Positions 5,921 to 26,974 of a stretch of 32,000 nt of DNA are shown in pieces (the first letter of the stretch is position 1; every line of letters starts with the position of its first letter). This DNA comes from Candidatus Iainarchaeum sp. (lineage in GTDB: Archaea; Iainarchaeota; Iainarchaeia; Iainarchaeales; 0-14-0-20-30-16), in contig JAQTTP010000001.1 in the NCBI GenBank assembly GCA_028710695.1, forward strand, positions 60,001-92,000, written 5' to 3'. The position numbers and the translations under genes were made by a program. The notes under the pieces are model-generated. The model was given only the letters and a program-made list of their open reading frames with translations, had not been told where the DNA came from and did not search any database.

Positions 5921-5946
5921 TGTGACTTTAATTATTAGTGATTGTT

Positions 5947-6213
5947 ATGTCTGAAAGTTATGTAAATGTTAATTTGCACATAGATGATTATACAAATAGG
6001 GTTTTGGGTGTTATTAAGGAAAAAAACGGATTAAAAGATAAATCCCAGGCCCTGATGTATTTTGCCAAACAATATGGCAGTGACCTGGTGGACCAAGAGG
6101 TAAAAGATGAAGTGATTAGAGAAGTAATACAAATAGAAGAGAACCACCTAAAGAAATATGGTCTTAGGGCAAAATCTATAAAACAATTAAGAGAAGAAAT
6201 AGAGCGTGACTAG
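5947..6213 (+). CDS. Putative antitoxin (small partner of a RelE-like toxin)
   Basis: This 88-aa acidic/basic helical protein sits 14 nt upstream of, and co-oriented with, a RelE-like gene. The pattern NRVLGVIKEKNGLKDKSQALMYFAKQYG is reminiscent of archaeal DUF2683-type partners, but that is recalled from memory only. ATG 5947 is preferred over GTG 5938. Confidence 0.5.
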   Translation: MSESYVNVNLHIDDYTNRVLGVIKEKNGLKDKSQALMYFAKQYGSDLVDQEVKDEVIREVIQIEENHLKKYGLRAKSIKQLREEIERD

Positions 6214-6227
6214 ATTAAAGTGATTTA

Positions 6228-6503
6228 ATGTTTGATCTTGATTATTCTGATGAATTAAAAGCCACACTTAATAAATTATCTAAAAAAGACCGGAAAAGAT
6301 ATTTTGAAGTAATTAAAAAAATGGATGAAATAATTAATTCGGATCCCGAAACAATAAACCACTACAAAAATTTGAGATACAGTTATTCTGACAGAAAAAG
6401 AGTGCACATTGGCGAGAAATTCGTTTTAACTTTCAGAGTATTTATAAAAGAAAATTTTATTCTTTTTGTAAAATTTGCACATAGAGACGATATTTACAAA
6501 TAA
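6228..6503 (+). CDS. RelE/ParE superfamily type II toxin (mRNA interferase-like)
   Basis: It is 91 aa and has the typical RelE layout: an N-terminal helix (LKATLNKLSKKDRKRYFEVIKKMDEI), then YKNLRYSYSDRKRVHIGEKFVLTFRV...FVKFAHRDDIYK (R-x-R-hIG, hhLhh, HR-x-x-hY). Confidence 0.7.
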   Translation: MFDLDYSDELKATLNKLSKKDRKRYFEVIKKMDEIINSDPETINHYKNLRYSYSDRKRVHIGEKFVLTFRVFIKENFILFVKFAHRDDIYK

Positions 6504-6620
6504 TTGTTTTCTGCCAAGAAAGTAATTTCTTTTAGTGGAAATTATTTCGGGGGCCAACAAAGCTTTTTTGTAGAAAACAAAAAAGTTTGAGGGTCAGAAG
6601 CAACCTTGTTTTACGCAAAG
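6504..6620 (-). repeat. Two-hairpin intergenic repeat, copy C (best aligned in minus orientation, 3' of mutL)
   Basis: The hairpins are GAAAGTAATTTC/ttttagtg/GAAATTATTTC (6518-6548) and AAAGCTTTTTTGT/agaaa/ACAAAAAAGTTT (6559-6588), separated by the core GGGGGCC (6549-6555). The flanking direct repeats are TTGTTTTCTGCCAAG (6504-6518) and TTGTTTTACGCAAAG (6606-6620), 12/15 identical. The 12-mer AAAGTAATTTCT (6519-6530) is identical to 26905-26916. Confidence 0.5.
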
Positions 6621-6637
6621 TTGACTTCTTACTGAAG

Positions 6638-14520: not shown

Positions 14521-15717
14521 ATGTCTTTAATAGAACAAATAAAGAAGAAAAGTAATTTAAGTGAAGATGAAATTAATTCAAAAATAAAGGAAAAAATATC
14601 CAAATATCCTGGGCTATTTACTGAGGAAAGTGCTGCCTATGTTTTGGCAAAAGAACTAGGCATTGTTTTAGAGGATAAAGATGTTAAACTTACTCCTTTA
14701 AACATTATAGACAACACAATAAAAACGGCAAATGTTAATACTGTTGTTGAATATATTTTCCCTCCAAAAGAGTATGTGCAGGGAAGTAAAAAAAGTAAAT
14801 ATGTAAGACTAATTGTTAGAGAAGATGATACTACAGTTAACTTGACTTTATGGGATAAATTTGTGCCTTTAGTTGAAACTAAAAAGATAAAAAAAGGATC
14901 AATTTTGGCATGTAAGAATTTATCTGTAAACAAATATAAAAATAAAATATCTCTTGGAACAACATCATTTTCTGATATTCAAGTGACTGGTGAAAAGAAA
15001 ATTGAACCAGAACAAAAAAGAATTAATGATTTGTCAGAAAGCGATTTCTTTGTAAAAGTAGAAGCAAAGTTGGTTTCAAAAAGAGAATTAAGAAATATAA
15101 ATAGCTCAAAAGTAATAAACTTTAGGCTTTACGATGGTTTTTACATAAATGCTTCCGCATGGGATGACGCAGCAGAAGAAGTAAATAAAATAGATATTGG
15201 AAAAACAATAGTTATTGAAGGCGCCTATGTAAGGAGAAGACAAAAACTAGAATTGAATGTTCCATCAGACGCAAAAATATCTACTTCTAGCAAAGCATTT
15301 GAAGTAGTTGCGGATGCAGACTTACCACTAAAAAATATTTCTGAATTAGCATACGGTGAAAGAGTAAGACTAAAAGGAACAATAAAAGGCCTTGACAGAT
15401 TAGTTTCATATAATTGGTGTGACAAGTGTAACAAAAAAGCAGAAGACGTTTGTGCTTGTGGAAACAAAGACTTGGTAAAGAACTATATTGTTGGATTTAT
15501 TTTCGGAGACGAATCTGCAACAACAAAAGCGATTCTTTTTAGAAACCAAATTTCCGCACTGTTGGGCTTACAACAAGATATTACAGGAATGACAGAAGAC
15601 GAAGTTAGCTCAAAACTTTCTACAGTTTTGGATAAAGATAAGGAATTTTTGGGTTACTTGAAAAAGAACACATTCTCCGGTGAGGATGAATTTATTGTCA
15701 TGAGAGTTGTTTCCTAA
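14521..15717 (+). CDS. Replication protein A (RPA41-like ssDNA-binding protein, OB folds plus zinc finger)
   Basis: The N-terminal domain (SEDEINSKIKEKISKYPGLFTEESAAYVLAKELGI) resembles the N-terminus of euryarchaeal RPA41. OB-fold patterns are present (VRLIVREDDTTVNLTLWDKF...KKGSIL). A zinc finger CDKCNKKAEDVCACGN is also present. Confidence 0.75.
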   Translation: MSLIEQIKKKSNLSEDEINSKIKEKISKYPGLFTEESAAYVLAKELGIVLEDKDVKLTPLNIIDNTIKTANVNTVVEYIFPPKEYVQGSKKSKYVRLIVREDDTTVNLTLWDKFVPLVETKKIKKGSILACKNLSVNKYKNKISLGTTSFSDIQVTGEKKIEPEQKRINDLSESDFFVKVEAKLVSKRELRNINSSKVINFRLYDGFYINASAWDDAAEEVNKIDIGKTIVIEGAYVRRRQKLELNVPSDAKISTSSKAFEVVADADLPLKNISELAYGERVRLKGTIKGLDRLVSYNWCDKCNKKAEDVCACGNKDLVKNYIVGFIFGDESATTKAILFRNQISALLGLQQDITGMTEDEVSSKLSTVLDKDKEFLGYLKKNTFSGEDEFIVMRVVS

Positions 15718-15797
15718 ATGCGGAAACAATCTCAGGCCCCTAAAGCAATTTCTGTAAACAAGAAATTGGCTTTTTGGTCATGAGGGTTGTGCAATAA
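15697..15797 (+). repeat. Two-hairpin intergenic repeat, copy A (3' of the RPA gene)
   Basis: Hairpin 1 is TTGTTTCC/taaatgc/GGAAACAA (15707-15729), and its loop contains the RPA stop codon. The core is CAGGCCCCT (15733-15741). Hairpin 2 is AAAGCAATTTCT/gtaaaca/AGAAATTGGCTTT (15742-15773). The flanks are GTCATGAGAGTTGTTTCCTAA (15697-15717) and GTCATGAGGGTTGTGCAATAA (15777-15797), 16/21 identical, with the first 14 nt 13/14. Confidence 0.5.
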
Positions 15798-15856: not shown

Positions 15857-15881
15857 AGCTTTCTTTTTTGAAAAGAAAGCT
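15857..15881 (+). promoter_or_regulatory. Perfect 11-bp-arm palindrome between the TATA-like element and the SD of radA
   Basis: The palindrome is AGCTTTCTTTT-ttg-AAAAGAAAGCT. A TATA-like CAATATAAAAAAAG lies at 15825-15838. The SD GGAGAGGT and ATG 15902 lie downstream. Confidence 0.4.
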
Positions 15882-25269: not shown

Positions 25270-26868
25270 ATGGAATTTAAAGACGTTATAAAGAAACCGA
25301 GAGTTGCAATATTAATCTTTTTGCTTATTATTGGTGCAATAATATTGGGTGTAAACGGCCTTAAATATGGTCTAGATTTTAGTGGTGGAACCCAATTTAC
25401 TATTGAACTTGATAAAGAAGTTACTGACGCAAGTACTTTAGCCTTAGTAACTAGTACAATAAGCCAAAGACTTGATTGGTCTGGATTAAAAGACACAACA
25501 GTTAATACCTGGGGTGGAAAATATGTTGTTGCACAAGTTGGAACAACAGATCCTGCAGAAATAGAGGCTTTAGAGTCTGTATTATACAAACAAGGGCGTT
25601 TTGAAAACATCATGGACGGCGAAATACTTTTTAATGGTGAAGATATTCTTTCAGTAGATAAAAATCCTTCTCAAGGATATAGCATAACAGACACAGGTAG
25701 TGGATATTATAGTTGGACTCTACCGTTTACATTAAAAACAAAATCTGCCAAAAAATTTGCAGAAATGACATTCCATAAATGTGTGCCATCAGGAACCGGT
25801 GGAGCATATGATTGTCCAAAAACATTTTTCTTTATTGACAGGCCTTTGAACTCAGTTTTTATAATCCCACAAGACTTATATGACGAGGAGCAATTACTTC
25901 CAACAGATCCAATAAATAAACAATCTTCAACAATAGAACTGGATGAAGCAATGAAAAATGCAAATATTGAATATATAATTGCGGATACAATAGATGCAAA
26001 TGTGATTGCAAAATTAAATGATTATAAATCAAAAGGGATAGAGAAAGTAATAGTTCCAAAAAGTGTTTATGATTTATCTGGCTTAGACTTGAATTTACAA
26101 TTTGTTGAAATAGCAAAGAACAATAAAGAGCCATGGGTTTGGACCGCAAGTGGTCTGAAATCTATTATTTGGGTTAATGAAGATATTACAAATTTAGGGG
26201 CCCCAAATACAAGCTCTTCAAACTTTAAAGTATTTTACACTTTGACTATTAGAGGCAGTGCACAAAACAAGGATGAAGCAGTATACAAATCAGATAATAT
26301 TTTTGTATTACTATCCTCTGGTTCTTTGCCAGTAGGTGTTTCTAATATTTCAAAAGAAACAATATCCCCTGTTTTGGGAGAAAACTTTTTAACTACTATA
26401 TTTATTATAGGAATTTTAGCAATAATTATTGTTGCATTAGTAGTTTATATTAGATATAAACACCCAACATTAATTGCAGCAATTATGGTTTCAACACTAG
26501 CAGAAGTATTTTTAATTTTAGTTTGTGCTTCAATAATTGGTTGGAGACTTGATCTTGCGGCAATTGTTGGTTTAATTGCAGCAATTGGAACTGGTGTAGA
26601 TGATGTTGTAATCATCACTGATGAAATCTCAAAGAACAAGGAAGAAAAAGAAGAACATAGTTTGTTAGCAAAAGTTAAAAGAGCATTCTTCATGATCTTT
26701 GCTGCTGCAGCAACAACTATCGCAGCAATGGTACCAATATTGATCTTTGGCTTCGGATTTGGAAAGCTTACTGGATTTGCTTTGACAGTAATTATGGGTA
26801 TATTGATTGGAGTAATAATCACAAGACCAGCATATTCCGAAGTAGTGAAATACATAATGTCCAAGTAA
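25270..26868 (+). CDS. secD: Protein-export membrane protein SecD
   Basis: It has an N-terminal TM, a large extracytoplasmic domain and a C-terminal TM bundle. The motif IGTGVDDVVIITDEI is present (compare the bacterial SecD G-x-x-VD-x-x-V). It is 532 aa. Confidence 0.85.
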   Translation: MEFKDVIKKPRVAILIFLLIIGAIILGVNGLKYGLDFSGGTQFTIELDKEVTDASTLALVTSTISQRLDWSGLKDTTVNTWGGKYVVAQVGTTDPAEIEALESVLYKQGRFENIMDGEILFNGEDILSVDKNPSQGYSITDTGSGYYSWTLPFTLKTKSAKKFAEMTFHKCVPSGTGGAYDCPKTFFFIDRPLNSVFIIPQDLYDEEQLLPTDPINKQSSTIELDEAMKNANIEYIIADTIDANVIAKLNDYKSKGIEKVIVPKSVYDLSGLDLNLQFVEIAKNNKEPWVWTASGLKSIIWVNEDITNLGAPNTSSSNFKVFYTLTIRGSAQNKDEAVYKSDNIFVLLSSGSLPVGVSNISKETISPVLGENFLTTIFIIGILAIIIVALVVYIRYKHPTLIAAIMVSTLAEVFLILVCASIIGWRLDLAAIVGLIAAIGTGVDDVVIITDEISKNKEEKEEHSLLAKVKRAFFMIFAAAATTIAAMVPILIFGFGFGKLTGFALTVIMGILIGVIITRPAYSEVVKYIMSK

Positions 26869-26946
26869 TTAATTCCAAAGTAACTGGAATTATTACAGGG
26901 GCCTAAAGTAATTTCTGATAAAGAAATTAACTTTTTGTCCAAGTAA
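26858..26946 (+). repeat. Two-hairpin intergenic repeat, copy B (3' of secD), bracketed by a perfect 11-bp direct repeat
   Basis: TGTCCAAGTAA occurs at 26858-26868 (the last secD codons plus stop) and again at 26936-26946. In between lie hairpin 1 TAATTCCA/aagtaac/TGGAATTA (26870-26892), the core CAGGGGCCT (26896-26904) and hairpin 2 AAAGTAATTTCT/gataa/AGAAATTAACTTT (26905-26934). Confidence 0.55.
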
Positions 26947-26974
26947 GGGCAACCTTACTCTTTTTTTATTTTTC
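26943..26974 (+). terminator. Hairpin plus T-run terminator (probably the original secD terminator)
   Basis: GTAAGG/gcaa/CCTTAC (26943-26958) is followed by TCTTTTTTTATTTTT. The stem begins within the second copy of the duplicated TAA. Confidence 0.55.

Follow-up and report, generated by a model that had tools for sequence, protein, structure and literature searches.

The 3′ end of secD in a 32,000-nt stretch of Candidatus Iainarchaeum sp. DNA (contig JAQTTP010000001.1, positions 60,001 to 92,000; hereafter, the window) carries two hairpins enclosed by a perfect 11-nt direct repeat. We call this arrangement copy B, and consider it probable (roughly 0.6) that it belongs to a genus-specific, gene-less family of palindromic DNA repeats that spreads replicatively and independently of a dedicated transposase. 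Orthologous sites with and without the repeat show that new copies inserted into intergenic DNA at sites with a TTG-N-CC / CTTCTT-like motif and that, in copies checked against empty sites, insertion duplicates ∼10-21 nt of the target. They further show that about half of the repeat-bearing copies hold the duplicated target in inverted form (order x - x′ - x), and that copies have also been lost precisely, with one repeat copy left behind. The family is like repetitive extragenic palindromes and bacterial interspersed mosaic elements (REP/BIME), or like MITEs (miniature inverted-repeat transposable elements), but fits neither. Below, G000 is the genome that holds the window (0.9 Mb), G001 and G002 are congeneric sister species, C-numbers are contigs, and L-numbers are loci or metagenome contigs.

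The secD end and copy B

The secD gene lies at positions 25270-26868 of the window (+ strand; 532 aa in the list of open reading frames, ORFs) and matches Pfam SecD_SecF_C and Sec_GG. Its orthologs share 92% identity in G002, 78% in G001 and 80% in L109, a fourth species; distant SecD homologs are labelled Candidatus Diapherotrites. The gene ends in ATG TCC AAG TAA, and both sister species keep the same C-terminal pattern, M-(S/A)-K-stop (S4 has M-A-S-K-stop). The last three codons and the stop form x1, the left copy of the direct repeat and the native secD end (TGTCCAAGTAA, M-S-K-stop, 26858-26868, +). Hairpin A overlaps it (26865-26896, +; GTAAT-TAATTCCA, loop AAGTAAC, TGGAATTA-TTAC), with the secD stop codon within its stem and its TTAC arm pairing with the GTAA of x1. 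The linker L1 (26897-26908, +), with its GGSCC-centred core AGGGGCCTAAAG (AGGGGCC-TAAAG; family consensus TTTCA-GGSCC-TGAAR), leads into hairpin B, a long, bulged hairpin of the family type (26899-26940, +; GGGC..AAAG.AATTTCT, loop GATAA, AGAAATT..CTTT..GTCC), whose outer pairs take in the start of x2. This second repeat copy (x2, TGTCCAAGTAA, 26936-26946, +) duplicates the secD end outside the coding sequence. Since the duplication covers the last three secD codons and the stop, secD stays intact.

The x2 copy runs into GTAAGG-gcaa-CCTTAC (26943-26958), followed by T-runs at 26961-26967 and 26969-26973. This is the ancestral transcript-end structure of secD (26943-26973, +), which has been shifted by 78 nt by the insertion; a homologous arrangement stands directly at the secD stop in L109. 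There, the stop lies within the hairpin AATAAGGG-tacc-CCCCTTATT, which corresponds to the hairpin after x2 in G000, and a convergent gene follows directly. A preliminary description of this DNA, made from the sequence alone, had noted the perfect 11-mer on both sides of a two-hairpin unit after secD and had proposed that the secD stop originally lay inside its own terminator stem. The sequence agrees with the first point (TGTCCAAGTAA recurs exactly), and L109, with its stop in a terminator-like hairpin, bears out the second.

The copy B region folds much more stably than shuffled sequence, with z-scores of −5.1 for the + strand RNA, −3.6 for the − strand RNA, and −5.1 for single-stranded DNA. 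The repeat by itself is only modestly significant: 0.9% of dinucleotide shuffles of the copy B region contain a direct repeat that is perfect over 11 nt or more, and other repeats of at least 11 nt spaced 40-110 nt apart occur at ∼6 places elsewhere in the window. The case for insertion therefore rests on the family pattern. The preliminary description needs one correction here: the TTG-SCC-AAG part of the 11-mer is identical to the junction motif of the repeat family.

Copies and distribution of the repeat family

Two further copies lie in the window, as the preliminary description had reported, and we found a fourth just outside it. Copy A (15697-15790, +) follows an OB-fold (RPA-like) gene and is flanked by the repeat GTCATGAGAGTTGT / GTCATGAGGGTTGT. 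Copy C and an adjoining unit (6512-6634, −) lie between convergent relE-like and mutL genes; the two share a central hairpin and make three hairpins altogether. Copy D (contig C3:39959-40045) follows an L10e ribosomal protein gene in the opposite orientation to that gene. Copies A, B, C, and D can be aligned, with seven covarying pairs.

A covariance model (R1) supports the earlier suggestion of a dispersed, non-autonomous repeat family: it finds ∼19 loci in G000 (16 at E < 1e-3 and three weaker matches judged genuine by eye), with matches reaching E = 1e-14. Two loci in G000 carry an identical (100%) 80-nt unit, which we count among the signs of gain. The same model gives 44 matches in G001 and 46 in G002 (both strands), corresponding to ∼30 loci in each. 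It has no match elsewhere in the family and order (38 genomes), and a second model built on 53 copies (R2) likewise fails to match any of 150 additional genomes from the phylum. The consensus pattern of hairpin A, searched in 185,579 species genomes, occurs in the two sister metagenome-assembled genomes (MAGs) only; among JGI metagenome contigs it occurs in 14, all from relatives, and it matches nothing in viral contigs or in a plasmid collection. On the genomes and contigs searched, the family thus appears restricted to one genus of tiny DPANN (Iainarchaeota-type) archaea. That the repeat matched no known family had been stated before, and Rfam, run on the window at both gathering and E-value thresholds, likewise gives no match to it, returning a tRNA elsewhere and a meaningless snoRNA match. 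A literature search for such repeats in DPANN archaea found no paper.

Strain-level variants of copy B were sought in two ways. An exact search of metagenome contigs for the secD end returned no strain variants, and the 90% secD protein cluster holds G002-like sequences only (all 92% identical to that of the window), with no strain-level copy B alleles.

Structure of the repeat

Read 5′ to 3′, the consensus of 53 copies is TTCTTG-SCC-AAGAAAG, stem A/loop/stem A′, TTTCA-GGSCC-TGAAR, stem B/loop/stem B′, and CTTCTTG-SCC. The two linkers, CTTYTTG-SCC-AAGAAAG and TTTCA-GGSCC-TGAAR, are both palindromes centred on GGSCC. The whole element measures 60-90 nt and carries no gene. Units may also form clusters of alternating orientation (L065, L036, L061, and copy C). 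The stems are drawn from a common pool (CTTTTTGC, CATTTTGC, CAATTTTG, AAATTTCT, and others); their sequences vary among copies yet remain complementary. In the family alignment, 88.6% of cells are paired versus 71% in shuffles, 257 cells are changed on both sides versus 82, and 24 of 27 pairs covary. Both helices contribute: pairing reaches 87% in helix 1 (hairpin A), where 13 of 14 pairs covary, and 90% in helix 2 (hairpin B), where 11 of 13 do.

Insertion sites and inverted targets

To compare filled and empty alleles, the flanks of G001 and G002 copies were blasted against G000 and the reverse, and metagenome contigs were added. Clean filled/empty orthologous sites are frequent among the three species and their metagenome relatives. 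An empty-site check of this kind had been proposed in the preliminary description, whose reading of copy B as an insertion with a target-site duplication is backed both by these pairs and by the secD end of L109. Duplication lengths verified on empty alleles are 10, 11, 14-15, 16, 19, 20, and 21 nt; in copies that lack an empty-site check they reach ∼34 nt. Duplications often include the stop codon of a gene, or a ribosome-binding site and ATG. For example, AGAAGAAGATAATTTA (16 nt; site empty in G000 at C19:100681-100702) contains the stop of the upstream gene, GCAAGAAGTAA (11 nt; filled in G000 and G001, empty in G002) is the L10e gene end duplicated at copy D, and TGTGATTTTATGGGCAAGA (19 nt; filled in G000, empty in G002) comprises a ribosome-binding site, ATG, and three codons. 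Further duplications are AAACTTATTTCTTCT (14-15 nt), whose site is empty in G000 (C5:24584-24610) but filled in both sister species, and the empty-site-checked ATTAGAAAAGAGTTTTTTGTC (21 nt) and TTGTCCATAAAGATAACACC (20 nt). The TTG-N-CC motif always lies inside the duplicated repeat, with a varying extent to its left and right.

Flanking repeats could in principle be merely the consensus ends of the family. A cross-copy control, which matches left and right ends taken from different copies, excludes this: copy-specific flanking repeats scoring at least 11 are found in 25% of 59 copies versus 1.6% in the control, a 16-fold enrichment.

The insert of filled alleles comprises one hairpin of the family type and, in addition, a stretch that can pair with the duplicated target; this stretch is missing from the empty allele, and target and inverted copy together make the second hairpin. 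Inverted matches of at least 7 nt lie inside 56% of the 16 copies with a clear repeat, compared to 17% in controls. Copy B has little such inverted sequence: TTAC, which pairs with GTAA, and GGGC, which pairs with GTCC.

Gain, loss and age of copies

Copies differ in age. Copy C and the copy at C23:77164 are filled in G000 only, and the copy C site is empty in both G002 and G001. Metagenome contig L102, which is ∼90% identical to G000, carries three elements within 2.4 kb, all at sites that are empty in G000. Copy A occupies the same site in G000, G002, and G001, and a G-C to A-T double change distinguishes hairpin B of G000 from that of G002; the G001 ortholog (L035, contig C1) was compared over its right hairpin, ∼95 bases of its left part being N.

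Loss is seen at the L043/L069 site. In G001, the copy of the repeat at the gene end has five synonymous changes, which are mirrored exactly by the inverted copy. The downstream copy retains the ancestral sequence, which is present as a single copy in G000; the insertion is therefore ancestral and was precisely lost in G000.

Copy B is a fixed, fairly old insertion rather than a fresh one, because a diverged ortholog is present in the more distant sister G001, where it has two hairpins and lacks the downstream repeat. At this site G002 has TGTCAAAG-TGAGCCTTT-TGTCAAAAG plus an unrelated short hairpin, a sequence that may be a remnant of the element.

Mechanism and the search for a mobilizing enzyme

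We searched the three genomes for enzymes that might move the repeat. The preliminary description had called for a search for a partner transposase or recombinase, and our search gave no transposase, reverse transcriptase, or Cas1 common to the three. Neither RVT_1 (PF00078) nor Cas1 (PF01867) was found in G000, G001, or G002, and Y1 TnpA (PF01797) was not found in G000 or G001, its single G002 match being an IS605 TnpA beside TnpB. The ends of this G002 element have no family hairpins and no similarity to the repeat ends, and no insertion sequence (IS) with the ends of the repeat family was found in any of the three genomes, the G002 element being the only IS seen. Each genome encodes one conserved Xer-type tyrosine recombinase of ∼282 aa, which we take to be XerA, along with a few extra integrases; no link between these enzymes and the repeats was found in the three genomes. 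The G002 locus itself (C9:14425-16956, L076) is an IS200/IS605 element with divergent TnpA (Y1, 144 aa) and TnpB (379 aa) genes, and G002, the only one of the three genomes with TnpB, has two further TnpB-like matches.

The element encodes nothing and would act at the DNA level. Its spread is most likely replicative and would need no dedicated transposase. We propose that the CTTYTTG/CAARAAG microhomology common to element and target may allow copying through template switching or snap-back synthesis, and that copies are most likely lost when replication slips from one flanking repeat to the other. The arms could be kept complementary by this intrastrand copying or else by selection on DNA structure. 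If the two extra hairpins that copy B places in the 3′ untranslated region (3′-UTR) of secD, ahead of the T-run, affect its mRNA, this would be a by-product.

Several observations weigh against this explanation. The perfect 11/11 repeat of copy B is surprising for an element shared with G001, and the inverted match of copy B to its own repeat is just 4 nt long. The evidence for template switching consists solely of the variable duplication length, the x - x′ - x topology, and the shared microhomology, with no intermediate or recent event observed. The hairpins have been kept over a long divergence with compensatory changes between orthologs (copy A in G000 and G002; L069), for which a selected function is an equally possible cause. 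Finally, the MAGs are 76-86% complete, so that a transposase may have gone unassembled. The perfect repeat of copy B could be reconciled with its age in either of two ways: the second copy was kept by pairing or conversion, or the element was acquired independently in the two species.

A bolder version of replicative spread, which we put forward tentatively, is that the family represents an undescribed mode of DNA mobility, in which a hairpin module is copied to a new site while at least 10-20 nt of target is triplicated as x - x′ - x, whether by transposase-free replication (template switching or snap-back at the CTTYTTG/CAARAAG microhomology) or by an unknown hairpin-forming enzyme. The repeats might then be viewed, again as a conjecture less probable than not, as 'miniature tandem-inversion duplications' turned into a self-propagating family.

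The strongest rival explanation, which we regard as unlikely, is that an enzyme unseen in the assemblies acts in trans on what would be a classical MITE or a REP-type element (candidates are a DDE transposase, a Y1 HUH transposase or REP-associated tyrosine transposase (RAYT), and a casposase-like integrase), so that the flanking repeats would be ordinary target-site duplications. The element is indeed small, non-coding, intergenic, palindromic, genus-specific, and duplication-flanked; its alternating-orientation clusters (L065, L036, copy C) resemble BIMEs; an IS200/IS605 element with Y1 TnpA exists in G002; and the MAGs are incomplete. However, the duplication of ∼10-21 nt slides relative to the consensus, unlike a fixed stagger, and the chemistry of REP/RAYT and IS200/IS605 systems leaves no target duplication. 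A Y1 gene was not found in G000 or G001, the ends of the G002 IS605 lack the family hairpins, and no Cas1 was found in the three genomes. Moreover, the stems covary rather than hold one transposase-binding sequence.

Genomic context and RNA-based readings

All copies in G000 are intergenic. They lie at stops, at starts, between convergent or divergent genes, and beside tRNAs, with one in a tRNA intron, and they occur in both orientations relative to neighbouring genes (opposite-orientation copies include copy D, C5:22173, and C3:178266). Surviving insertions hug genes because the spacers are very short and the long duplication regenerates the gene end. Non-Watson-Crick cells of the alignment are symmetric, with 32 G·T versus 29 A·C, which is not expected of RNA read from one strand. 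The family therefore seems to act as DNA and not as an RNA module, because its orientation is mixed, its G·T and A·C mismatches are balanced, and both strands fold. Two statements of the preliminary description give way here: copies are not confined to gene 3′ flanks in co-orientation with the gene, and the idea of a recruited terminator or 3′-UTR module gains no support from orientation or mismatch symmetry.

Less probable than an enzyme acting in trans is a selected RNA module (a 3′-UTR stabiliser, a terminator, or a translational control element) that was recruited at gene ends and whose structure has been maintained. Many copies are close to stop or start codons, stems often include a stop codon, or else a ribosome-binding site together with ATG, compensatory changes preserve the hairpins between species, and a T-run follows copy B. 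Against these points stand the mixed gene-relative orientation (copy D, C5:22173, C3:178266), the absence of an excess of G·U over A·C mismatches, folding on both strands, and the copies located within a tRNA intron or in the promoter regions of divergent genes; in addition, orthologous genes manage without the element, as the empty sites indicate, and no Rfam family matches. Chance occurrence of the repeat and hairpins in AT-rich intergenic sequence, for which the ∼6 other perfect repeats of at least 11 nt and similar spacing in the window could be cited, has a negligible probability and is refuted family-wide by the fold z-score of −5, the ∼19 loci reaching E = 1e-14, the 16-fold enrichment of flanking repeats, and the empty sites.

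Several other RNA- or DNA-based candidates were tried and rejected. Translational bypass ('hopping') between the 11-mers would bring no gain, as the same stop follows directly after the landing copy. The folds do not have the geometry of an archaeal bulge-helix-bulge intron. Integron attC sites are at odds with the housekeeping contexts and the absence of a cassette array, and C/D-box or kink-turn RNA with the absence of box C and G·A pairs. A classical attenuator was set aside because the arrangement is unique to copy B and hairpin-dependent termination is not known to be established in archaea.

Copies at gene starts and in the tRNA intron show how closely insertions may abut functional sequence. 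At C3:178266-178339 and C19:26966-27043 (G000, outside the window), copies have inserted at gene starts, so that ribosome-binding site and ATG are present twice. These insertions create the short upstream ORFs MGKKAIYK* and MDKKAIYKKGKLFQAHK*, and the true start codon lies in a hairpin stem. At locus L019 (G000 C3:189260-189560), a tRNA-Gly(CCC)-like gene, which ARAGORN did not call when run on this locus, has a long intron; within it lies a copy of the repeat with AAAAGCGTTC at its flanks. In the G001 ortholog (L086) the intron is shorter and holds no family copy.

Comparison with known systems

MITEs are defined by terminal inverted repeats that are conserved over at least 10-15 bp and by duplications of 2-10 bp that are fixed per family (PMC11602168). 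Prokaryotic MITEs such as Correia, RUP, and the Sulfolobus SM elements (census in PMC11602168) are, like the present family, small non-autonomous elements that are duplication-flanked, intergenic, taxon-specific, and polymorphic for presence or absence. The family is also small (60-90 nt), non-coding, and multi-copy (∼19-30 loci per genome). In contrast to MITEs, its duplications are long and variable (10-21 nt), its termini are a short motif that is also in the target (the ends share only CTTYTTG-SCC / SCC-AAGAAAG, with no conserved terminal inverted repeats that match an IS), and the target itself has supplied part of the element's sequence. The preliminary description had called the element MITE-like; with variable duplications, no conserved transposase-type termini, and no partner enzyme, it is not a classical MITE.

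REPs and BIMEs share more of the architecture. They too are short, extragenic, non-coding hairpins with compensatory variation and a lineage-specific distribution, often at gene 3′ ends or between convergent genes, and they occur singly, in pairs, or in alternating clusters with conserved linkers. The family likewise consists of extragenic imperfect palindromes, single or in alternating clusters. REPs are tied to RAYTs (Y1) and have no target duplication, whereas the family has no RAYT shared by the three genomes (MAGs 76-86% complete) and has ∼10-21-nt duplications, copy-specific and verified on empty sites, together with an inverted target, an archaeal host, and a low copy number (∼20-30).

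Other mobile systems are more distant. IS200/IS605-derived palindrome-associated transposable elements (PATEs) have left-end and right-end subterminal hairpins homologous to a resident IS200/IS605, insert 3′ of a fixed tetra- or pentanucleotide, and leave no duplication; the repeats show no similarity to the ends of the G002 IS605 and do have duplications. Casposon-type integration involves a Cas1 integrase and 14-15-bp duplications, and here the duplication length is variable and Cas1 was not found. A retroelement would call for a reverse transcriptase in the genome, and none was found in the three incomplete assemblies. A structured RNA or terminator should match a curated family or be conserved strand-specifically, and the repeats do neither.

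Local rearrangements provide a closer parallel. A Salmonella model has reportedly been proposed for tandem inversion duplications (TIDs). Template switching or snap-back copying, and slippage between repeats, are both known for palindromes; reports on short-range template switching (PMC7954356) and on inverted triplication (PMC4689423) may be compared. TIDs and short-range template-switch mutations at quasi-palindromes resemble the family in their direct-inverted-direct order, palindromic junctions, and variable extent; a single such event, with no dedicated enzyme, can yield both a perfect hairpin and what looks like a compensatory change. They alter local sequence only, whereas the family also brings in a family-type hairpin from elsewhere and recurs as the same module at dozens of loci, two of which share the 100% identical 80-nt unit.

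Precise loss also has a counterpart. Host-mediated precise excision of Tn10 and Tn5 occurs by slippage between their 9-bp duplications. As in that process, the palindromic insert and one repeat were lost and the site restored at C19:100681-100702 and C5:24584-24610 in G000. Slippage accounts for loss and not for origin, and the flanking repeats of the family are longer than those of Tn10 and Tn5.

Small palindromic repeats (REPs and MITEs) have so far come mainly from bacteria and a few well-studied archaea, and dedicated transposases serve as their explanation. The DPANN genome studied here is reduced and nearly devoid of mobile-element genes, yet it has gained and lost hairpin repeats, and the footprints of these events (long variable duplications and an inverted target) do not fit standard enzymes. 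Should replication prove to be the mechanism, the family would illustrate how hairpins that seem to evolve by compensation can appear and multiply in the absence of RNA selection, a practical warning for covariation-based discovery of RNA structures. The insertions also remodel gene ends: stops come to lie in stems, ribosome-binding sites and starts are duplicated, short upstream ORFs appear, and one copy sits in a tRNA intron. In genomes whose intergenic spacers are very short, the repeat family may thereby influence expression.

Further observations

Upstream of copy C, positions 5938-6503 of the window hold two small genes, the second with a weak YhaV/RelE-type toxin match (E = 3.7e-5, under the Pfam cut-off). 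The spacer toward the convergent mutL gene at copy C is ∼12 nt in G002 and ∼150 nt in G000, where it is longer because hairpins inserted.

On JGI contig Ga0210051_1029311 (L104), two tandem elements stand exactly where synteny switches between a region matching C5 of G000 and one matching C19; the repeats there may mark a rearrangement breakpoint.

A second type of palindrome lies near copy A. The perfect palindrome AGCTTTCTTTTTTGAAAAGAAAGCT (15857-15881) is found just upstream of radA, ∼75 nt past copy A. This module flanks many tRNA genes of G000 and has the CTTTCTT/AAGAAAG motif in common with the double-hairpin family.

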